In this document: positions 339 to 12,143 of the stretch, piece after piece
How the letters are laid out: each line of letters begins with the position of its first letter
Numbering within the stretch: position 1 is the stretch's first letter
Assembly (NCBI GenBank): GCA_046497275.1
Contig: JAWOFX010000169.1
Coordinates: 1 to 12,367, forward strand
Direction of reading: 5' to 3'
DNA length: 12,367 nt
Origin: Promethearchaeia archaeon
GTDB taxonomy: Archaea > Asgardarchaeota > Lokiarchaeia > Sigyniarchaeales > SOKP01
The notes under the pieces: model-generated
Databases searched by the model: none
The model's input: the letters and a program-made list of their open reading frames with translations, nothing else
What the model was told of the DNA's origin: nothing
Program-made: the position numbers and the translations under genes

Positions 339-2288
339 TTAAACCCCAATTTTTTTGGATTGATGATTGATGTAAAAAAATACTCCTCCACTTGTTCCAA
401 GAATAGAATCAAATATTACAAGCATTAAAATAAATAAGAATTGGCTACTCTTTTCTGATAAGATAAAATCTCCGATTATTAACTTTTCAAGTGTAATAAA
501 ATCGGTTAAAAAAAAGATCACAATTAGCAATATTAAAGCAAAAAATACCAATTGAATGATGCCGATTATTTCATTAAATATAAATATAAATCGCTTTTCC
601 CTTTCACTCAACTCAATAATTTGTCCTTCCTCAGTTTGAATGACTACCTCTTTACTCCTTTCCTTCTTTAAAATATAATAAAGAATCTCTTTTAGTGGAA
701 CTATTTCAAAGAAAACAGTTATTAATGAAAAAAGGCATATTGTAGAAATAATACTTATTAGGATATTAGTAAAAATAGGATTTATAGCTTCTATTTGTCC
801 TCCAACGCTAATGATTAAGATAAAAAAGCCCGTAACTAGTGTAAAGAAAAATTTAAGACCAGTTAAAGTTAGTTGTACTGAAGGATTATCCGAGATAGAA
901 ATAAAATAAAAAGAAAAGCCGACAGCCAGAATTATTAATCCAAGCATTAGATTTGACAACGCAAAAAAAAATGCTGTAATTAAAAAAATGGTTCCATAAA
1001 TTCGCTTTTTACTGCTAAAAAATAAATATAGGATTAATCCAATAAACAACCAAATTATTGGAACGAAAATAATAGATAGTTCTATATTCATAATAAGTAA
1101 TCCACTCAAAACCATAGCTAAAATTGTACTATAGGGATGGAGAGGTACTTTAAAAGTATCTTCAGAATACATTTTCTTTTTCGTTTTTCTAAATTTAAAT
1201 ACGGTTAAAGCTAAGCTATTAATTATAATCATATAAGCGACAACAGTAATAGATGCAAAAAATTCTACTTGACCCGATAGTACTATTAATATCAAGATAA
1301 TTGATGATAACTTTATAGCTTTCACAGGTGCATTAGCATCCGCATCTATTTCAGCATATTTTCGATCCGTGAAGTCATTGATGGAAAGCCCGACAAGGTT
1401 GCGAGACTGCGCCATTAGAGATATTCCAAGAGTAGTTAATAGAGAAAAAATAGCGCCTAAATAAACTATAAAATAAATAATATTATTAGTTGACACAGCA
1501 TCTAAGAATGCAATTTCACTTTGTTGTATACTATTTAAATCTGTTGAAATATATAATGAAATAATAACCAAAAGATAAATCACTGTTGTAATTGAGATCA
1601 TCATATAATAAGCTTTAGGAATATTCTTACGGGGTTTTTCTACTTCTTCTGCTATGGTACAAATGTCTTCAAATCCAATAAATATAACAAATAATAATGC
1701 TGCGGCAGGTATTATTGCAAATATTCCATTGGGAAAGAAATATTCAAGATTCCAATCAATTGATGGATTAGGGTTAAGAAATAAAAAAATTGAACCAATA
1801 ATAAGAGAAAGAACTAAAGAAGTTGTTAATGGAATCTGAATCCTTGATAAAAATCTTGACCCTTTAAGATTAACATAAGCCATCAGGAGAACAAAACCAA
1901 TTGCAAGGGGAGTAATAAGATATTCATTGAGGTTGAGAAAGGATACTATAAAAGACCCTAAAGTATGGGCAACTAGTGCACCATACGACATATTAGCGAG
2001 CCAAGTTAACCAACCGAGGTATAATGCTTTTTCACCATATGCCTCTTTAACATATACAAAGCTTCCTCCGTTTATGGGTTTAACACTTATTACTTCTGAA
2101 TAAAAACTAACAGCAATAAATGAAAATAAAGAACCTATAATAAGGGATATAATTGTAGCGGGACCCGCGATTTGCCCTGTAAGTCCTAATAACGAATATA
2201 TACCAGCCCCAGTTAGAGCACCAATTCCCAAAATTGTGAGTGAAAAAAGTTTTACTTTTTCGATGTGTTCTGTGAAGTTTTCGCCCAT
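339..2288 (-). CDS. APC-superfamily amino acid permease with additional C-terminal membrane domain
   Basis: 649-aa ORF. It has TM1 GIGALTGAGIY, loop GGSFVYVKEAYG, TM6 FIGFEDICTIAEEVEKPRKNIPKA, TM8 QSR and C-terminal FKVPLHP, all typical of APC/cationic amino acid permeases. About 220 extra hydrophobic residues follow aa 430. Confidence 0.9.
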   Translation of the reverse strand: MGENFTEHIEKVKLFSLTILGIGALTGAGIYSLLGLTGQIAGPATIISLIIGSLFSFIAVSFYSEVISVKPINGGSFVYVKEAYGEKALYLGWLTWLANMSYGALVAHTLGSFIVSFLNLNEYLITPLAIGFVLLMAYVNLKGSRFLSRIQIPLTTSLVLSLIIGSIFLFLNPNPSIDWNLEYFFPNGIFAIIPAAALLFVIFIGFEDICTIAEEVEKPRKNIPKAYYMMISITTVIYLLVIISLYISTDLNSIQQSEIAFLDAVSTNNIIYFIVYLGAIFSLLTTLGISLMAQSRNLVGLSINDFTDRKYAEIDADANAPVKAIKLSSIILILIVLSGQVEFFASITVVAYMIIINSLALTVFKFRKTKKKMYSEDTFKVPLHPYSTILAMVLSGLLIMNIELSIIFVPIIWLFIGLILYLFFSSKKRIYGTIFLITAFFFALSNLMLGLIILAVGFSFYFISISDNPSVQLTLTGLKFFFTLVTGFFILIISVGGQIEAINPIFTNILISIISTICLFSLITVFFEIVPLKEILYYILKKERSKEVVIQTEEGQIIELSEREKRFIFIFNEIIGIIQLVFFALILLIVIFFLTDFITLEKLIIGDFILSEKSSQFLFILMLVIFDSILGTSGGVFFYINHQSKKIGV

Positions 2289-2578: not shown

Positions 2579-4057
2579 TTATTTTTGCAACTTTATTTTA
2601 AGAAATAAATGAAATGCACGAGGACCAAAAGTTACTAATATATAAAAATTCTCTCTTCCTCCAATATTTAATCTACCATCTGAAATTGGTAATATTATCT
2701 GTCTGGTTCCATAATTGGTTGCCAAATCGTGATCAAATCTGTTAAAATCAGCCCTATTCTCCAAGGCTCTGACAGTATGAAAATATTCAGAACTATCATC
2801 TCTCGAGAGTTCAGCAAATTTAAAATGGAGATCTAAATAGTTTCCATACTCATGTTCGTTTGTAATTAGAGTGGTTGTACTATGATATGATTTTAGAAAT
2901 AATGTACCCTCTTTATATTCGGGAAATCTTTGCTTGGCAGTACTAAAAATTTCTTTGATAATATTTGTGAGGAATATTAACTGTGTTATACTATAACTCC
3001 TTAATTTTAGTTTATATGAAATATTAATCTCATTTTCGTTTTCTAAGACTTTTTCTTGTTTGATATCTAATAGAGTTTTAAACATATGCTTCTTTTCCTC
3101 TGGAATTTCATAGATATTGGAATTAAGCCGAGCAGCATTTCTGAAAACCCACGTTCTTAATAAAGATTTTTGAGAAAAAGAGAGATCTTCCGTTGCCTCC
3201 AACAATCCTCTATATATCTGTGATATCTCTAGAGTGGGACTTGCGCTACCGACTATTATCCTATGCCATGTATTTTGGATAAATCCATCTATAGAGAATA
3301 GATTTTTAAAGTATTTTGTAGGAGTCATTCCACCTATACATCTTGGATCCAGTTCGAGCCAAAGATTATTATAATAACGCATTAATTGGTAATATAAGCC
3401 CAAATCTCCCGATATATCTAGCCCACTTAGTATAATCCGGATATCAAGATGATTACTTACAAATGATTGAATAATTTCCTTGGAAATAAATCCACTATAA
3501 TAATTGGGAAAAAATATATTTCCAATATCTATTTTTAGAAATAAACATTCTTTTTTTACATAGTCTAATAATCTATTGAGTTGAGTATTATCAAGATTAT
3601 TCAAATCAAGCATCGTGTATGAGGGATAAAGAACTATTCCTACGACATCAATTATTTCGTTAATCTCTTTGATCTTCTGAGCTAAGTTCTCATTCTGTGT
3701 TGTTAAAGTAAAGGATAGGATTGCCTTGAACAATTCTGGAGCTTTTTTTGCGACATTTAAGAGGTCTTTATTTTCTATTCCATATTCCCTACCCAAATTC
3801 AAAGCTTGAAGAAATGCTAATTCTATATTAGAACACTGCAATTCAACTTTAAGATCATCCAGATTAAGATTTCGATGATAAAAATAAGGATGTCCTTCTG
3901 CGTTTTTTAAGGAAAGTAAATTTTTTAGTTTATCAGATTTTTCACAATTCTTAAATATGGGCCACATCAAACTATCAATTTGAGGATATAAGAAAGCATT
4001 GCCGAATCTTTCACCAAAAATACATGAATAATCTGGTTGATATAATCGTTCGATCAT
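2579..4057 (-). CDS. Fusion: degenerate Amidohydrolase_2-like TIM barrel (aa ~25-312) + YjbQ/UPF0047 (secondary thiamine-phosphate synthase family) domain (aa ~344-490)
   Basis: The C-terminus has YjbQ-type motifs GTLFLKSYHSTTTLITNE, EYFH, LPISDGRLNIG and FGPR. The N-terminus follows the Amidohydrolase_2 motif order (IDS.., GIVLYP, IDIG, IILSG, NLWLE, RIIVGSASP, RNAARL) without the metal ligands. Confidence 0.75.
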   Translation of the reverse strand: MIERLYQPDYSCIFGERFGNAFLYPQIDSLMWPIFKNCEKSDKLKNLLSLKNAEGHPYFYHRNLNLDDLKVELQCSNIELAFLQALNLGREYGIENKDLLNVAKKAPELFKAILSFTLTTQNENLAQKIKEINEIIDVVGIVLYPSYTMLDLNNLDNTQLNRLLDYVKKECLFLKIDIGNIFFPNYYSGFISKEIIQSFVSNHLDIRIILSGLDISGDLGLYYQLMRYYNNLWLELDPRCIGGMTPTKYFKNLFSIDGFIQNTWHRIIVGSASPTLEISQIYRGLLEATEDLSFSQKSLLRTWVFRNAARLNSNIYEIPEEKKHMFKTLLDIKQEKVLENENEINISYKLKLRSYSITQLIFLTNIIKEIFSTAKQRFPEYKEGTLFLKSYHSTTTLITNEHEYGNYLDLHFKFAELSRDDSSEYFHTVRALENRADFNRFDHDLATNYGTRQIILPISDGRLNIGGRENFYILVTFGPRAFHLFLKIKLQK

Positions 4058-4114: not shown

Positions 4115-4822
4115 TTATAAATATTCCAACTTGAATTCAAAAATGCTTTTTAGTTGTTGGACGATATCTTTTAATAAAGTAAACTCCTCTTCCAGAAAAT
4201 TGTGGGATTTTAAATAATAAATCTCAACAGAAAGAGAATTCTCATAGATTTTACTTCCATAGGATATTTTCCATGGCGTTTCCTCATAATTTTTTGAAAA
4301 ATATTCCTTTCCTTGGAAAATTATTTTAGCAGAAACATCCTCAGGAAATTGAAATCCAACTCTCAAATTTTTCAATACGTCTTTAAAGATATCATCAACA
4401 GCACTAATCGGCTGACATAAAACATTTGAAATTTTATATAAACAATCTAATTCCTTTACTCGTTCTCTCAATTTTCTCTCAGAATTAGCAAGTTTTTCAG
4501 TAAGAATTGTTAAAACTATTCCGATTAAAATGAAGAATAAAACCCTGATTAAATTATCGAATAAATATTCCAAGTGGAAAGTTCTCGTAATGAAAGGTAA
4601 AAATATTAAAATGATTGATAAAATCCCTACAATTATTAATCCATGCTTTTTCCACCATAATATCGATATTGTAATTGGTAGGTAAAAGAAATGCGAAAAG
4701 ATAATATCTGTATCGAAATAAAGATTGAAATAAAATGTTATAAATAGTGAAATTAGAACTAAAATACACATAAGTACTGCTCTATATAGATTAGACTTGT
4801 TTTCTTCAAAATATTTTTTCAT
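4115..4822 (-). CDS. Membrane sensor-like protein: ~4 TM (DUF4118/KdpD-TM-like) + coiled coil + GAF-like domain, no output domain
   Basis: Four hydrophobic helices (with FSHFFYLPI..WW..G) in aa 15-108 are followed by LRERVKELDCLYKIS...FQFPE...AKI...Y...ETPW...VEIYY...FLEEE..LL. This pattern is familiar from GAF-like modules of archaeal and deltaproteobacterial sensor kinases. Confidence 0.65.
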   Translation of the reverse strand: MKKYFEENKSNLYRAVLMCILVLISLFITFYFNLYFDTDIIFSHFFYLPITISILWWKKHGLIIVGILSIILIFLPFITRTFHLEYLFDNLIRVLFFILIGIVLTILTEKLANSERKLRERVKELDCLYKISNVLCQPISAVDDIFKDVLKNLRVGFQFPEDVSAKIIFQGKEYFSKNYEETPWKISYGSKIYENSLSVEIYYLKSHNFLEEEFTLLKDIVQQLKSIFEFKLEYL

Positions 4823-4971: not shown

Positions 4972-6963
4972 ATGGTTTTAAAAAGTAGGTTTAGAAATAT
5001 CAAGGATGGTTACCCTATAATCATTAAACCCAATATTGGACAACCCATTTTATTAAATTTAAACCAGTTAAAGGCTAATATTCGAGATAATGGAGATAGT
5101 ATTAAGTTTGAAATGTTAATTTTAGCAAATTCCTCCTTTAAAAAAGAAGATATAGAGAGAATTTTTTCCAATAGAACATATATACAACCACTTTTAAAAG
5201 ATCACGGAGAATTCCAAGAGAGACGAGGAAGTAAAAAAAAAGTTGAGATAAATTCTGCTATTAGATTAGATTTTATTGATTTCAGGACAGAAGAGTATGC
5301 CTCTGAGGAGTTATGTGAAGTATGGGACATCAATCGTACATTAAAGAAAAGGGAACGAAAGGCATCCAAACGAAAACAACTTTTTAAATGTCATGTTGAA
5401 ATAGATATATCGCCAGAGATTTTAGAAATTTTAAAACAAAATTCTTTTATTTTATTTGATTTAATTGTGAAATACCCTCAGATAAACCAAAGTAGAACCA
5501 ATTATCATAGTATAGCGATTTATGATAAGGAATGGACAGAATTTAACTTTATTCATGCTTCGGATACTCATATCGCAAGAAGAAATGATTTTATCCATAA
5601 ATATCTTAAAGTAAAGGAATTAAAGAGAATTAAAAAAAACTTAAAAAAAGGAGAAAAACAAACATCCTATTTATTGGATAGAGAATTTCAGTTTAAAGAG
5701 GAATTTCAAGAAGAGAATCTTGAACGGTTTAGGCATGGTAAATATAATTTCAATAGCAATTTAAGGCTTTTCATATCCACCGTGAATGAAATGAGCAGAA
5801 AGGGAATCTTAGATTTTATAATTATTACAGGGGATCTTGTAGATTATGTTGACACCGCTAATAATGATGAATATTATGATAATAATTTCCAATTTTTTTT
5901 AGATATTCTCTTAGGTGTTAATCGAGATCCCAATTTGAACGATAAAGAGCTTCTAAATATAACTGAATTAACAGTTCCAATTTTTACGACAATTGGGAAT
6001 CATGATTATCGAAAAGGTCACTACAGCATAAAAGCGGGCAATCTATTCAAGAGATTTGGATTAAAGAATTTGGATATCAAAGACTATAAAGACGAGAAGT
6101 TTTTTAATTATTTTAAGGCAATATATTCAAGGACCAAGTTTTTAAAAGATTATTTAATGTATATAAATCCTAATCTGAATTTTAAAGTCGAAATAGGAGA
6201 TGAAATTTCTCTAATTTTTTTAGATACTGGAATCGATTCAATAGCAGATATTTTTGGAGTATTGAGAAGCGCTCCAAGTACACGAGGATTAAAAAAATAT
6301 CAAATAGATCTGCTTAGAAGATTTATTCAACAATCTAAAGATAGACATATTCTATTATTTATGCATGCCCCCCCATTATCCCCCAATCTTGGACCATGGA
6401 AAAAATGGAGTTTACGAAAAAAATTTAATTTAGACAGAAATATAGAGTGGTACGATTTTTATAAGCCAAATATTAAAAAATATACAGGAAGTAAACGAAT
6501 AGATTCGATTTTAAATTTTAAATATCAGACAATAATGTATAGATGGAGAACATTAATGGAAATATTATCTGGATCAGATGAGATAATTAAGAGAAAAATA
6601 GATATGGTTTTTTGTGGTCATACACATACTTTAAAAGAATTTAGGATTGAGGAGGCTAAAGATTTTGAGAAGAAAAAAGTTAACTATGGATTTTATTTTG
6701 TACCTTATTATATAGATGTTCCTTGTAAGATATATACTAACAGATATAGAGATATCTTCGAATTATTTGATGATGATATAAATAGAGAAAGCTGGTTTGA
6801 TGCTAAGAAACCTTTTATTTTTCAAACGCAAGGATTAGGTCCATTATCTTCAAAATTTAAAGTTAAACCTCCTGGGTTTCGATTAATATCAATAAAAAAT
6901 AATCATATATCCAATGTAAAAGTCTATTCAATGCATTTAAAAGAAAATGATTTGAGAAATTAA
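4972..6963 (+). CDS. Large calcineurin-like metallophosphoesterase (MPP superfamily)
   Basis: All five MPP motifs are present in order: SDTH (D198/H200), TGDLVD (D288), GNHD (N343/H344), MH (H465), GHTH (H550/H552). No signal peptide or TM segment is evident. Confidence 0.88.
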   Translation: MVLKSRFRNIKDGYPIIIKPNIGQPILLNLNQLKANIRDNGDSIKFEMLILANSSFKKEDIERIFSNRTYIQPLLKDHGEFQERRGSKKKVEINSAIRLDFIDFRTEEYASEELCEVWDINRTLKKRERKASKRKQLFKCHVEIDISPEILEILKQNSFILFDLIVKYPQINQSRTNYHSIAIYDKEWTEFNFIHASDTHIARRNDFIHKYLKVKELKRIKKNLKKGEKQTSYLLDREFQFKEEFQEENLERFRHGKYNFNSNLRLFISTVNEMSRKGILDFIIITGDLVDYVDTANNDEYYDNNFQFFLDILLGVNRDPNLNDKELLNITELTVPIFTTIGNHDYRKGHYSIKAGNLFKRFGLKNLDIKDYKDEKFFNYFKAIYSRTKFLKDYLMYINPNLNFKVEIGDEISLIFLDTGIDSIADIFGVLRSAPSTRGLKKYQIDLLRRFIQQSKDRHILLFMHAPPLSPNLGPWKKWSLRKKFNLDRNIEWYDFYKPNIKKYTGSKRIDSILNFKYQTIMYRWRTLMEILSGSDEIIKRKIDMVFCGHTHTLKEFRIEEAKDFEKKKVNYGFYFVPYYIDVPCKIYTNRYRDIFELFDDDINRESWFDAKKPFIFQTQGLGPLSSKFKVKPPGFRLISIKNNHISNVKVYSMHLKENDLRN

Positions 6964-7919
6964 CTTTGTTTCATAAATTCTCTAACTTCTTCATAGCTAT
7001 TATCAGACATAGGTCCGAAATTTCTAACTTTTAATGCACCGACGGCATTTGCAAATTTTCCAATTTCATAAAGATTCCATTCTTTTAAAAACCCAACAAT
7101 AAATGCTCCTCCAAAAGAGTCTCCAGCACCTGTAGGATCGATTTGCCGCACCTTATATGCAGGTATTTTTATACCTTCATTCTCTTGCTTTGAAAAAATT
7201 CTAGATCCATCGCTTCCTTGTTTTAAAACTACAATTTCAGGACCATTTTCTAATAAATTGCGACAAGCTTCTATTTCACCATCTACTCTTGCTAGCATTT
7301 CTGCTTCCTCACCACTTGGGAGTAGGATTTTTGTCTGTTTAAGTACTGGCATAGAAATATCCAATATCTTCTCAATTTCAAGCATTTCAGGTCTTAAGTT
7401 TGGATCGAAGCTTATTATTACATCTGGATTTTGTTTTTTCGCAATATCTAATGCTTTATAGCATGCTTCTCTTGATTGCTCGCTAATTGACAAAGCACTT
7501 CCCATGATATGTAAGGCTTTGATATCAGAAAAGTATTCTTCTGAGAGATCATCTACAGATGTGTTTCCAGCAGCTCCAGCAGAAAATATAAATTTTCTTG
7601 AACCATCCGAATTATATTGATTAAATGCAATCCCCGTAGTTTGCTGATTCTCAACTCTTATATAGGAGGTGTCTATACCATCTTTTTTCATTTTTTCTAT
7701 AATGCATTCACCAAATTCATCATTTCCAACAACACCAATATAACCCGTTGAGATATTAAATGGTTTTGCCATTCTCGCAGCTGAGTCAATAAAAATAGCA
7801 GGAGCTCCACTTGGATAAGGACCTTTATAGATACCGCCAATTCTTCCGTGAGGGACATCCACATCATCGCGCATAATTTCTACTAATAATTCTCCTAAAG
7901 ATATAATATTTGGACTCAT
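6960..7919 (-). CDS. PfkB/ribokinase-family carbohydrate kinase
   Basis: N-terminal IISLGELLVE, PSGAPAI, GVVGNDEFG, SFDPNLRP and the PfkB anion-hole signature DPTGAGDSFGGAF with its catalytic Asp. Confidence 0.93.
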   Translation of the reverse strand: MSPNIISLGELLVEIMRDDVDVPHGRIGGIYKGPYPSGAPAIFIDSAARMAKPFNISTGYIGVVGNDEFGECIIEKMKKDGIDTSYIRVENQQTTGIAFNQYNSDGSRKFIFSAGAAGNTSVDDLSEEYFSDIKALHIMGSALSISEQSREACYKALDIAKKQNPDVIISFDPNLRPEMLEIEKILDISMPVLKQTKILLPSGEEAEMLARVDGEIEACRNLLENGPEIVVLKQGSDGSRIFSKQENEGIKIPAYKVRQIDPTGAGDSFGGAFIVGFLKEWNLYEIGKFANAVGALKVRNFGPMSDNSYEEVREFMKQS

Positions 7920-9192: not shown

Positions 9193-10134
9193 ATGACAAT
9201 TGATTCACATGTTCATCTATTTTTTGAAGGAAGCGACCCTGAAGAATTTTTCATGGGATGTGCGAGAGCCGGAGTTTCAATATTTGGTAAAGATAAACCT
9301 AATGAAGAACATCAAGATGCGAGGCAACTGTATCTTCAACTGATGGATATTCTTTCAGATCAAGATGGAAGTAGATTAATTAAAGAAATGGATAAAGCAG
9401 ATATCGATAAAGCAATTCTCTTACCATTAGATTTCTGGTTGAAATATCCCAAAGCTGAATTTTCAGGAATTTCTATTAAAGAGAAAAATGAGATTTATGG
9501 AAAAGTTGTTGAAACATATCCTGATAGATTTAAAACATATTTTGGAATTGATCCAAGAAGAAAAGATGCCAGAATATTACTCGATATAGCAATGAAAAAA
9601 TGGCAACCTGTTGGGCTAAAGATTCATCCAACTGCAGGGTTTTATCCAGATGATCCAGCTTGCTATCCTTTATATGAGTTAGCAATAGAGTATAATTTAC
9701 CTATTTTGATTCATAGTGGGCAAGAACCCGCACCAATGGAAGCAAAATGGAGTCACCCAATGTATATCGATAAAGTAGCAGCAGATTTTCCAGAAGCGAC
9801 AATTATTGTGGCACATTGCGGACATGGGTGGTGGCGACAAACCTTGGATATGGCAATAATGAAACCAAATATGTATGTTGATTTTTCAGGCTGGCAACCC
9901 TTATTTAATATCAATCCAGATTATTTTTGGGAACCATTACGGTTTGCGATTGATACACTGGGACCATGGAGGGTTCTTTTTGGATCTGATGGAAGTATGT
10001 TAGATGTTTTTCTTTCTCCAAAAAAATGGGCAAAAGCAGTATCAAATCCTTCCAAAACAACAGATATAGAATTTACTGAGAGTGAGATTGAAATATTTAC
10101 AGAAAAAGCAGCAAAAAAATTATATAATCTTTAA
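9193..10134 (+). CDS. Amidohydrolase_2 family metal-dependent hydrolase (TIM barrel)
   Basis: Intact motifs IDSHVH, GLKIHP, LIHSG, VAHCG, NMYVDFS and RVLFGSDG. Confidence 0.92.
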   Translation: MTIDSHVHLFFEGSDPEEFFMGCARAGVSIFGKDKPNEEHQDARQLYLQLMDILSDQDGSRLIKEMDKADIDKAILLPLDFWLKYPKAEFSGISIKEKNEIYGKVVETYPDRFKTYFGIDPRRKDARILLDIAMKKWQPVGLKIHPTAGFYPDDPACYPLYELAIEYNLPILIHSGQEPAPMEAKWSHPMYIDKVAADFPEATIIVAHCGHGWWRQTLDMAIMKPNMYVDFSGWQPLFNINPDYFWEPLRFAIDTLGPWRVLFGSDGSMLDVFLSPKKWAKAVSNPSKTTDIEFTESEIEIFTEKAAKKLYNL

Positions 10135-10945: not shown

Positions 10946-11701
10946 ATGAATACTCTTTTGATAATAATTCTTTTTGGGTTTTTCATGAGCTTAATAGCTT
11001 GGATCGGATTAATCACTTTATCTATTAAAGAAAAAATATTAAGGAAAATTTTATTGGTTTTGGTGGCGTTCTCTGCAGGAGCTTTACTAGGTGGGGCATT
11101 TCTTCATTTATTGCCCGAAACTATTTACCACGGTGGTGATCCCATGACAACATGTATTTGGTTAATAATCGGATTCTCAATATTTTTTCTTTTAGAACAA
11201 TTTTTACAATGGCAACATCAACATAAAGTACCATCAGAATATAAAAAGCCTGTAGGTTATTTAATATTAGTTGCTGATGCATTACATAATTTTATTGGAG
11301 GGTTAGCAATTGCCAGTTCTTTTATGGTTAATTTCGAAGTAGGAGTCATTACATGGATTGCCGCAGCAGCTCATGAAATTCCTCAAGAATTAGGTGATTT
11401 TGGTATACTTCTGCATAGTGGATGGAAAAAAAGAAACGCGCTAATATTTAATTTTATTTCAGCATTAACAATAATTCCTGGAGGGATTATAACATTTTTT
11501 CTTTCTGCAAGTATAAACACAAGTTTTTTGCTACCTTTCGCTGCTGGAAACTTCATATATATTGCTGCTTCTGATTTAATTCCAGAAGTAAAACATGGAA
11601 AAGAAGATTATGGTGAATCAGTGATAACGAGATTAGGGCATTTTGTTGCATTTATAGTAGGTATCTTATTTATCTTAATGGTGAGAATTATTTTTGGATA
11701 A
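10946..11701 (+). CDS. ZIP-family (LIV-1-like) divalent metal transporter, probably Zn
   Basis: FSAGALLGGAFLHLLPE, short His loop QHQH, TM4 DALHNFIGG, TM5 HEIPQELGDF, FAAGNFIYIAASDLIPE. Confidence 0.93.
   Translation: MNTLLIIILFGFFMSLIAWIGLITLSIKEKILRKILLVLVAFSAGALLGGAFLHLLPETIYHGGDPMTTCIWLIIGFSIFFLLEQFLQWQHQHKVPSEYKKPVGYLILVADALHNFIGGLAIASSFMVNFEVGVITWIAAAAHEIPQELGDFGILLHSGWKKRNALIFNFISALTIIPGGIITFFLSASINTSFLLPFAAGNFIYIAASDLIPEVKHGKEDYGESVITRLGHFVAFIVGILFILMVRIIFG
11680..11684 (+). promoter_or_regulatory. Shine-Dalgarno GGTGA supporting the TTG start at 11694
   Basis: GGTGA lies 9 nt before TTG, inside the end of the ZIP gene. The two CDS overlap by 8 nt. An alternative ATG start is at 11724. 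Confidence 0.4.
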
Positions 11702-12143
11702 AATAGAAAACTTTAAGACTAATATGGCAGAACTCGACTATACAGTTATAAAATTTTTATTTAGAGAAAATAATCTTATAAAAATTGGAGTTCTTTCGGA
11801 TAAATTGGAAATTCCTCATTCTACTTTAGGAAGTTGTATCGGAAGACTTAAAAAAAAGGGTTTAGTAAAGTATGAACCCTATTATGAGGTCGAGCTTACT
11901 AATGAAGGTAAAGAATTGGCCAAAGAAATTTTAAGACATAAGCATTTACTTGAAATATTTTTTTATAGAGAATTACATCTCACTAAAGAAAAAGCACATG
12001 AAGAGAGCGAAAAAATTAATCTTGTATTCTCCTGTGAAACTATAAATAAAATATGTGAAAAATATGGTCATCCTAAAAAATGTCCTTGTGGAGAGACTAT
12101 TTTAAACTCATGTCTATGCTATTGCAAACAATCGAATTTTTAA
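11694..12143 (+). CDS. DtxR/MntR-family metal-dependent transcriptional regulator with Cys-rich C-terminus
   Basis: Winged HTH (LDY...PHSTLGSCIGRLKKKGLVKYEPY.EVELTNEG), dimerisation helix (LLE..F...L.L....AHEESE) and HPKKCPCG matching the family P..CPHG motif. The start is TTG 11694 or ATG 11724. Confidence 0.88.
   Translation: MDKIENFKTNMAELDYTVIKFLFRENNLIKIGVLSDKLEIPHSTLGSCIGRLKKKGLVKYEPYYEVELTNEGKELAKEILRHKHLLEIFFYRELHLTKEKAHEESEKINLVFSCETINKICEKYGHPKKCPCGETILNSCLCYCKQSNF

Follow-up and report, generated by a model that had tools for sequence, protein, structure and literature searches.

A metal-less amidohydrolase-type barrel fused to a divergent YjbQ-like domain in Lokiarchaeia and its split archaeal counterpart

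YjbQ proteins and amidohydrolase-type barrels

Proteins of the YjbQ/UPF0047 family (PF01894) occur in bacteria and archaea, with matches in 10 of 14 well-known genomes in a control search, and their structures have been available for about 20 years, yet only promiscuous activities are known. According to passages in PMC3010111 and PMC3020362, which cite Morett 2008, the thiamine-phosphate synthase activity of YjbQ is low and is not regarded as its physiological one, and yjbQ is a multicopy suppressor of pdxB; a 2026 preprint still attributes 'no clear function' to YjbQ (10.64898/2026.06.26.734693). Here we describe a gene of a Promethearchaeia archaeon (Lokiarchaeia), in which a divergent YjbQ-like domain is fused behind a barrel of the Amidohydro_2 type. 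The gene lies on a stretch of 12,367 nucleotides (contig JAWOFX010000169.1 of assembly GCA_046497275.1), which was analysed as a whole and is called the window in the following. It is the minus-strand open reading frame (ORF) at 2579-4057 and encodes a barrel-YjbQ fusion protein of 492 amino acids (aa). An earlier note, made from the letters of the window alone, had described it as a dead amidohydrolase barrel joined to YjbQ, as a candidate for an architecture not described before and as a possible Rosetta-stone clue to the function of YjbQ. In the literature searched, no paper describing the fusion and none linking YjbQ with Asgard archaea was found, and the databases name its homologues only 'YjbQ family protein', 'hypothetical' or 'thiamine phosphate synthase YjbQ', so that the architecture can indeed be regarded as undescribed.

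The C-terminal domain of the fusion shares with the solved YjbQ/UPF0047 proteins (1vmj, 1vph, 1ve0, 1xbf, 2p6c) the fold, sequence homology and the H-T-T, N-E, Asp, His, D-x-N, His and G-P-R positions. However, YjbQ proteins stand alone with about 140 aa, whereas the domain is located behind a barrel here and is always fused in this family. The BB4693-like Amidohydro_2 barrels (3irs, 3k4w), among which 3irs is the best structural match of the fused barrel, and the amidohydrolases P0151 and P0154-P0156, which are encoded in a YjbQ-amidohydrolase gene pair that we will focus on below, have a G-S/T-x-x-P-x-x-E signature after strand beta8 in common with the fusion. Like the fused barrel, 3irs has an Ala at the beta8 ligand position. 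In contrast to most pair-type barrels, the fused barrel has none of the HxH motif, the beta5 His, the beta6 His and the beta8 Asp or Glu, and it adds a conserved N-terminal extension of 23 residues. As a separate observation, 3irs (BB4693) itself lacks the strand-5 His (Met/Thr there) as well as the strand-8 Asp (Ala), and a departure from the canonical metal site may therefore be under way in the BB4693-like subfamily as a whole.

The next-best folds are the sugar/aromatic lactonases of cog3618, represented by 4dlf and 4do7, by 4i6k (Z 19.5, root-mean-square deviation (rmsd) 3.2 Å, 248 residues aligned), by 2ffi (Z 18.8, rmsd 3.5 Å, 249 aligned) and by LigI (4d8l; Z 17.8, rmsd 3.8 Å, 252 aligned), with only 12-13% identity to the fused barrel. 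These lactonases generally keep the His and Asp set that is missing in the fused barrel. A further match of the fold is Php of Escherichia coli (phosphotriesterase homology protein, 4lef; Z 16.7, rmsd 3.4 Å, 250 aligned), which is an amidohydrolase-superfamily barrel as well. A pdxB deletion can be rescued by overexpressing either php or yjbQ, and the two genes share one complementation pattern, designated 'pathway 2' (PMC3010111). However, Php, a predicted metallohydrolase by annotation, comes from another family of the superfamily and is unlinked to yjbQ in that study. The parallel between Php and YjbQ is only a lead that may be due to coincidence.

The fusion protein and its two domains

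The analysis confirmed that the architecture is real and lineage-restricted and that its N-terminal two thirds are unannotated. The protein, all parts of which are encoded on the minus strand, begins with an N-terminal extension (aa 1-23; 3989-4057) that precedes barrel strand 1 and has a mean entropy of 0.85 in the alignments, with L5, P8 and D9 being invariant. It is followed by a (beta/alpha)8 barrel of the Amidohydro_2 fold without canonical metal ligands (aa 24-318; 3104-3988), which was assigned by hhalign, structure comparison, Foldseek and entropy, by the end of a linker (aa 319-328; 3074-3103), assigned from entropy and homologue lengths, and by the divergent YjbQ/UPF0047-like domain (aa 329-492; 2582-3073), for which Pfam, profile matches to the PDB, Foldseek and profile scores were used, with the stop codon at 2579-2581. 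The variable, charged linker region as a whole (aa 312-345) has a mean entropy of 2.27 and differs in length between the homologues, with about 90 extra residues at most (P0126).

The C-terminal assignment of the earlier note holds at every level examined. Pfam places UPF0047/YjbQ (PF01894) at aa 370-480 with 29.3 bits, which is borderline with respect to the cut-off of 27, and the domain scores 32.8 bits in a six-frame search of the genome. The profile of the domain matches the solved YjbQs 1vph and 1ve0 at E 6e-7, and Foldseek gives target-normalised template-modelling (TM) scores of 0.76-0.84 to 1vmj, 1vph, 1xbf, 1ve0 and 2p6c.

The N-terminal domain escapes direct searches. Pfam found no match over the first 330 residues and NCBIfam none for the fusion protein. 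The gathering cut-off of PF04909 (26.4) was not reached, with no match for the window protein and 23-24.5 bits for the fused homologues P0122 and P0128, and a sequence search of the PDB with the barrel profile returned noise only, with 3irs at E 1.3. BLASTP of the fusion protein against the amidohydrolase encoded at 9193-10134 of the window gave nothing significant, and therefore a profile-profile comparison was needed. With hhalign, the family profile of the N-terminal domain aligned to five Amidohydro_2 proteins of the same genome with a probability of 97.5% (E 6.8e-12, 253 columns). Thus, out of the two Pfam families expected by the earlier note, PF01894 was found as such, whereas PF04909 was not matched by Pfam and the amidohydrolase homology was recovered by hhalign. 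Furthermore, the barrel profile reaches a true PF04909 protein (P0151) at E 3.7e-6 among 1.84 billion representatives, and the protein-language-model features of the domain also indicate PF04909.

The structural models agree with this assignment. In the AlphaFold2 model, built with 59 homologues (predicted local distance difference test (pLDDT) 92, predicted TM score 0.90), an eight-stranded beta/alpha barrel is connected by a short linker to an alpha+beta domain. Foldseek against the PDB separates the two domains, the C-terminal one matching YjbQ structures and the N-terminal one matching amidohydrolase-2 barrels (3irs, 4i6k, 4do7, 2dvt, ACMSD and others) at E ~1e-9. A second structure search, which was independent of Foldseek and used the model of the N-terminal domain alone (VIA-align), placed 3irs at the top (Z 22.0, rmsd 3.4 Å, 262 aligned), followed by amidohydrolases of cog3618 (4dlf, Z 19.8, rmsd 3.4 Å, 258 aligned) and about 50 further members of the amidohydrolase superfamily. 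The cluster representative A0A524C494 of the AlphaFold DB, with 51% identity, superposes over 493 residues with a TM score of 0.93, and the interdomain geometry is therefore predicted reproducibly. The N-terminal domain is confirmed as a barrel of the Amidohydro_2 type without any canonical ligand, and the fold proposed before from motif order alone was recognised correctly.

Metal-ligand loss and the conserved face of the barrel

The replacement of all canonical ligands, already noticed by comparison with the protein encoded at 9193-10134, is reproduced by hhalign pair by pair. Both His residues of the HxH motif in strand 1 are replaced, by L30 and W32 (IDSHVH versus IDSLMW; hhalign and MAFFT alignment), and divergent fused members have L or Q and W or F at these positions. 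The strand-5 His is replaced by D177 (LIHSG versus KIDIG), which is invariant across the fused family, and the strand-8 Asp by A272 (FGSDG versus VGSAS), where A, S or G is present across the family. The strand-6 His falls into the stretch S211/G212/L213, in which the register is uncertain by 1-2 residues, with no His nearby. None of the full-length homologues has these ligands, and in the alignment they are absent even from fused members with only 33-41% identity. An alternative MAFFT register, which placed the 'PDF' of the fusion (aa 8-10) under the 'DFHIH' of the pair barrels, was discarded, as the structure-based and hhalign registers disagree with it. The protein at 9193-10134 that served as the intact paralog in the first comparison is a genuine and fully liganded Amidohydro_2 protein (Pfam, 109.5 bits), but among the four Amidohydro_2 genes of the genome it is the one most distant from the fused barrel (-1.7 bits with the barrel profile).

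The designation of the barrel as dead, on the other hand, is not supported by the pattern of conservation, since its catalytic face is its most conserved part and a fixed polar set replaces the metal site. The catalytic face, which was taken to comprise the strands' C-terminal ends and the four positions that follow them, has a mean entropy of 0.72 bits compared with 1.47 bits for the opposite face (Mann-Whitney p 1.6e-5), and none of 10,000 random draws was as low. D28, Q84, Y144-P145, K175, D177, E235, R239, S271, P274 and E277 are invariant across the deepest divergences of the fused barrel, and the polar residues D28, Q84, Y144, K175, D177, E235, S271 and E277 stand where the metal site was. 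From this pattern we infer a retained pocket rather than a relic, its membership being taken from strand ends and conservation, and the term 'dead barrel' should give way to 'metal-less barrel with a conserved pocket'.

Retained and changed positions of the YjbQ-like domain

Compared with 1vph and 1ve0, the fused domain has kept H392-T393-T394, N400-E401, D409, H427, D437-x-N439, H443 and G478-P-R480, most of which are invariant in the fused family. The canonical strand motif GTWQ is changed to GGRE in the window protein and to GxRE in the fused family, the Glu and Asp of the ExDGPR motif are replaced by V475 (V or L in the family) and F477, and six residues are inserted after H427. The same genome harbors two canonical YjbQ matches with 122 and 113 bits, one of which corresponds to a full stand-alone gene of contig C66, while the second is located at the edge of contig C3. 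Therefore, the fused domain is a specialised paralogue and not the only YjbQ of the cell.

Distribution, conservation and selection

A word-indexed search of 5.8 billion proteins gave 194 matches. Among the 120 matches listed, nearly all have 487-515 aa and 53-80% identity at full coverage, and the named sources are metagenome-assembled genomes (MAGs) of Promethearchaeota, Lokiarchaeota, Thorarchaeota, Hodarchaeota or Hermodarchaeota. A genome scan at species level revealed 52 loci, all but two of which are labelled Asgard or uncultured archaeon, and the labels of the two exceptions, Nanopelagicaceae and Bathyarchaeota, are probably binning errors. When 400 Asgard genomes were scanned, the fusion gene was found in 66 of them. 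It is concentrated in the family of the source genome (52 of 134 genomes), and further occurrences fall into three more families of the order and into one family elsewhere in the phylum, but it is missing from most other Asgard families (0/31, 0/22, 0/19 etc.). An exhaustive HMMER search of the 1.84 billion representatives with the barrel profile matched only 32 clusters, and all nine full-length clusters that were examined (483-585 aa) carry the YjbQ domain. A stand-alone form of the barrel was considered and rejected, as the 349-aa protein P0123 ends at the end of a 1073-bp contig and the other short matches are fragments. The fused architecture is kept in members down to 33-41% identity.

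The ratio of nonsynonymous to synonymous substitution rates (omega, dN/dS; Nei-Gojobori) amounts to 0.17 for the barrel and 0.065 for the YjbQ domain in the unsaturated pair of loci L043/L021, and to 0.11 and 0.08, respectively, between the window and locus L004. Across 33 syntenic loci the identity to the window is 55% for the barrel, 61% for the YjbQ domain, 48.5% for a neighbouring metallophosphoesterase and 68% for a neighbouring sugar kinase of the PfkB family. Both domains are under purifying selection and the fusion is conserved. What had been suspected from a single sequence thus extends well beyond one assembly, with the fusion and the ligand loss conserved at dN/dS < 1, and the intact frame of 492 aa, with its homologues and an omega of ~0.1, is no product of simple decay.

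In some genomes (G259, G255, G251, G243) stop-riddled remnants of the fusion are present at the expected syntenic place. Remnants with several stop codons or reduced to short fragments are found beside the metallophosphoesterase gene at G259:C260:716-1534, G255:C45:6347-6490 and G251:C303:5525-5638, and they indicate that the gene is being lost in situ within one Lokiarchaeia genus.

A split YjbQ-amidohydrolase gene pair

The only unfused protein that is reached by the barrel profile is P0151, a PF04909 protein of 288 aa with 3irs as its closest solved relative (E 1.3e-15), and its gene starts 3 nucleotides after a gene for a 149-aa YjbQ on its contig. All pair-type relatives examined show the order YjbQ and then amidohydrolase, often with overlapping reading frames, and adjacency or overlap of both genes was found in the loci L065, L068, L070, L074 and L075. 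The remaining neighbours of the pair differ, with a BcrAD/BadFG ATPase and an AdoMet (S-adenosylmethionine) decarboxylase in L065, L066 and L067, a MalK-type ABC transporter in L068 and L069, SIS, EIIC-GAT, SIS_2 and FBPase_3 proteins in L070 and L074, and divergent GalK, GalT and GalE together with a PfkB downstream in L075. One member of the split pair is labelled as a Thermoprotei MAG, the others being located on archaeal contigs.

The pair YjbQs reach 33-51 bits with the profile of the fused YjbQ domain, compared with 3.3 bits for the canonical YjbQ of the genome and 9-16 bits for more distant YjbQs. Likewise, the pair amidohydrolases score 19-53 bits with the barrel profile, compared with -1.7 to 15.6 bits for the paralogues of the genome itself. 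With hhalign, the YjbQ-domain profile aligns to the pair YjbQ P0153 with a probability of 95.6% (E 1.2e-8) and with no gap across the insertion, whereas the probability is 7% for the canonical YjbQ. The change from W to R in the strand motif is common to the pair YjbQs and the fusion, the YjbQ of L075 having GGRENIY and the fusion GGRENFY. On these profile comparisons the pair members are the nearest unfused relatives of both fusion domains. The fusion is the fused form of a conserved archaeal two-gene module that consists of a variant YjbQ and a BB4693/3irs-like Amidohydro_2 barrel, and the Rosetta-stone reading of the earlier note is borne out by this overlapping pair of YjbQ and Amidohydro_2 genes.

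Most pair amidohydrolases keep the HxH motif, the strand-5 His, the strand-6 His and the Asp or Glu of strand 8 (mostly Glu at beta8); P0151 lacks the HxH motif and P0155 has a Gln instead of the strand-5 His. Since the ligands are kept in most of them, the complete ligand loss is a derived trait of the fused lineage.

A scan of metagenome contigs with the motif of the pair-type YjbQ gave only two loci, both of which were already known. Adjacency to an amidohydrolase as a general property of YjbQ was considered and rejected, as P0169, P0171, P0172 and the YjbQ of genome G291 have no amidohydrolase neighbour. The last of these (L073; G291:C141, 2141-2608, minus strand) is a stand-alone pair-type YjbQ in an Asgard genome of another family, lying on a 2.8-kb contig with no adjoining amidohydrolase. 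It has the motifs HHHF...KDGR...AVNA.AH and GGRQ and scores 53.7 bits with the profile of the fused domain.

Predicted dimer

When two copies of the fusion were modelled with ESMFold2, a homodimer score of 0.53 was obtained, compared with 0.00 for the best control. Out of the proteins with known structure, 20 of 30 that were solved as pairs of one chain and 1 of 23 that were solved as single chains reach this mark, counts that hold only roughly, since a custom alignment was supplied for the prediction. Between two of the three runs, 94% of the contacts are shared, whereas the third one scores 0 (minimum agreement 0%), and the pLDDT of the partner is at least 79. The predicted interface is symmetric and comprises aa 2-5, 20-22, helix 67-77 with the invariant E72, and 277-287 after strand 8 on the barrel side, as well as 353-357 and F477-G-P-R-A481 on the YjbQ side of the partner chain. 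Within the N-terminal extension, residues 2, 4-5, 20 and 22 belong to it. Upon removal of the YjbQ domain from the model, aa 1-10, 271-280 and 311-335 lose 15-40 pLDDT points (aa 1-10 from 90 to 58), which is consistent with the predicted dimer interface and supports a putative binding. The dimer predicted for the fusion differs from the trimer, which is the usual state in the YjbQ family.

Possible function of the fusion

As the most likely reading, to which we give about an even chance, the fusion is a composite protein, in which a sugar-derived ligand would be bound by the barrel and the chemistry would come from the YjbQ-like domain, within a cross-braced dimer. The barrel would no longer perform metal-dependent hydrolysis. 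Instead, the pocket that is presumably lined by D28, Q84, Y144, K175, D177, E235 and S271, as judged from strand ends and conservation, would bind a substrate or an intermediate, which is probably sugar-derived and possibly phosphorylated. The YjbQ-like domain with its kept cluster of His, Thr, Asn, Glu and Asp residues would then carry out or complete the chemistry. The protein is probably a symmetric dimer. Contacts would run between the chains, from helix 67-77 as well as loop and helix 277-287 of one barrel to the YjbQ domain of the partner (353-357 and the GPR motif at 477-481), and this cross-chain arrangement would mimic a complex of the split proteins. The role of the fusion would be an accessory one, because the gene has been lost repeatedly.

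The sugar connection relates to the gene neighbourhood. The split pairs lie in sugar-related surroundings, namely beside the MalK-type ABC transporter, the SIS, EIIC-GAT and FBPase_3 genes, and GalK, GalT and GalE together with a PfkB. A tagatose-kinase-like PfkB sugar kinase (6960-7919, minus strand; Pfam/NCBIfam) is encoded two genes from the fusion in the window, and such a PfkB gene is found upstream and on the same strand in 43 of 53 loci. The window PfkB is 52% identical (E 8e-114) to the PfkB encoded directly downstream of the split pair in L075, in a Thermoprotei MAG, and for both of them tagatose kinase is the best NCBIfam model (256 and 318 bits, respectively), under the equivalog cut-off of 420 bits. 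This recurrence of PfkB across two archaeal phyla is suggestive.

Several observations weigh against the composite reading, regarding both the neighbourhood and the proteins themselves. PfkB orthologues are present in 112 of 135 genomes of the family, including 47 of 54 genomes of a genus in which the fusion is found in 0 of 54, and metallophosphoesterase orthologues are likewise found in genomes that lack the fusion. Two such genomes have PfkB, coiled-coil, APC and PHP genes in a block with neither a trace of the fusion gene nor a disruption; such intact blocks and the stop-riddled remnants described above lead to the conclusion that the gene is accessory and was lost repeatedly in Lokiarchaeia. 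The divergent fused members (35-37% identity) are located in unrelated neighbourhoods. As canonical motif residues are lost in the fused YjbQ domain, it may not carry the canonical YjbQ chemistry. The split pair is rare, with about six protein clusters found, and YjbQs at ≤48% identity to the pair type (P0169, P0171, P0172) are those that stand without an amidohydrolase neighbour. Moreover, the order of the domains is reversed, the YjbQ preceding the barrel in the split form and following it in the fusion, which means that the fusion did not arise by simple read-through or loss of a stop codon.

The main alternative, that the protein is rather a bifunctional enzyme with a barrel that is still catalytic, is conceivable, although on balance unlikely. 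The barrel would then use K175, D177, E235, D28 and Y144, either metal-free or with Mg/Mn bound by carboxylates, and would perform one step, such as a lactone or ester hydrolysis or an isomerisation, whereas the YjbQ domain would perform the adjacent step. The strong conservation of the catalytic face is in agreement with this. Invariant polar or charged residues are found at the C-terminal ends of strands beta1, 2, 4, 5, 7 and 8 even at 33-41% identity, and the invariant Asp in place of the beta5 His could still bind a metal. The closest folds include the cog3618 lactonases 4dlf and 4d8l, and the sporadic ligand loss in the split-pair barrels (P0151, P0155, Glu at beta8) hints at a relaxed metal dependence in the clade. 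LigI (4d8l) is reported to work without a metal, and it keeps its His and Asp residues; however, these are all gone in the fused barrel, in which L30 and W32 place bulky hydrophobic side chains at the metal position. Furthermore, we know of no precedent in the superfamily for catalysis by the residue set of the fused barrel.

It seems improbable that both domains are remodelled relics, which act as a ligand sensor, a regulator or a structural or oligomerising scaffold without any enzymatic activity, an option close to the sensing or scaffolding role considered in the earlier note. In its favour, the barrel retains none of its ligands, and in the YjbQ domain Trp and Gln are missing from GTWQ as are Glu and Asp from ExDGPR. 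The gene is dispensable, as can be seen from its repeated loss and the remnants in situ, and in 34 of 53 loci the next gene encodes a coiled-coil protein. A precedent for metal-less proteins of the amidohydrolase fold with non-enzymatic roles is given by the CRMP proteins, and 4b90 is among the fold matches (Z 15.3, rmsd 4.2 Å, 266 aligned). However, the YjbQ domain keeps H392, T394, N400, E401, H427, D437, N439, H443 and R480 and has the lower omega, the conservation is focused on the catalytic face and not spread over the surface, and the split counterparts are found in metabolic operons. Finally, a mis-assembly, a read-through fusion or an amidohydrolase pseudogene has a negligible probability, as nothing more than the missing ligands and the borderline Pfam score speaks for it. 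It is refuted by dozens of assemblies, independent of each other, in which the ORF is intact and has identical start and length, and by an omega of ~0.1; furthermore, the model of A0A524C494 superposes over 493 residues (TM 0.93).

Returning to the composite protein, a wider proposal goes beyond the fusion itself and is rather doubtful. It says that YjbQ proteins are obligate partners of amidohydrolase barrels in an unrecognised sugar or sugar-phosphate step, which is linked to a tagatose-kinase-like PfkB, and that the Lokiarchaeia barrel is a metal-free pseudoenzyme, which has only remained as a substrate-binding or activating subunit for the catalytic YjbQ domain. If this were true, the fusion and the split pair would be the first route to the physiological reaction of YjbQ. 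When a fusion is conserved and a gene pair with translational overlap is conserved independently of it, this is the classic genomic indication that two proteins are coupled physically or in a pathway. Here it points to a specific partner of YjbQ, the BB4693/3irs-like amidohydrolase that was a structural-genomics target, and a plausible area, namely sugars or sugar phosphates and a tagatose-kinase-like kinase. The liganded split barrel and the ligand-free fused barrel can be taken as a natural experiment on which partner does the chemistry and on how a metalloenzyme barrel becomes metal-free. The fusion, which is built from known domain families, thereby makes the long-open question of YjbQ experimentally approachable.

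Neighbouring genes

Besides PfkB, the most frequent neighbour of the fusion is a calcineurin-like metallophosphoesterase of 663 aa (4972-6963, plus strand; Pfam), which is the divergent neighbour in 39 of 53 loci. The Pfam match of this protein extends over aa 192-553, which points to large insertions. Most of the 135 family genomes have a paralogue with 30-36% identity, and several orthologues elsewhere hold single in-frame TGA, TAA or TAG codons. The possibility that PfkB or the metallophosphoesterase is inherited together with the fusion in Lokiarchaeia was considered and rejected, since both occur in fusion-less genomes. Near the divergent fused members phosphoesterases recur as well (Metallophos_2, Exo_endo_phos, PHP). 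In the window, a membrane protein of 235 aa is encoded 57 nucleotides upstream of the fusion on the same strand (4115-4822, minus strand). It lacks a kinase domain and has a DUF4118-like sensor module, which is weak and does not reach the cut-off (22.4 bits). Such a neighbour is present in only four related loci, and in most genomes the metallophosphoesterase and not the DUF4118-like gene is the direct divergent neighbour of the fusion.

Downstream of the fusion, a coiled-coil protein is encoded in 34, an APC permease in 30 and a PHP phosphoesterase in 28 of the 53 loci. The coiled-coil protein (L005:6849-8303 and relatives) has about 484 aa and gives only sub-threshold matches of the tropomyosin, HAUS1 and crescentin type. 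Its gene is absent from the window, where a gap of 290 nucleotides precedes the permease. The latter (339-2288, minus strand) belongs to the APC family of amino-acid permeases and has 649 aa. Its permease domain ends near aa 420, and the last ~230 residues resemble extra transmembrane segments with no Pfam match. At the other end of the window, the gene for a ZIP metal transporter (10946-11701, plus strand) overlaps by 8 nucleotides with that for a regulator of the DtxR/iron-dependent-repressor family (11694-12143), which has a TTG start codon and a Cys-rich C-terminus, and both together are likely a metal-homeostasis pair.

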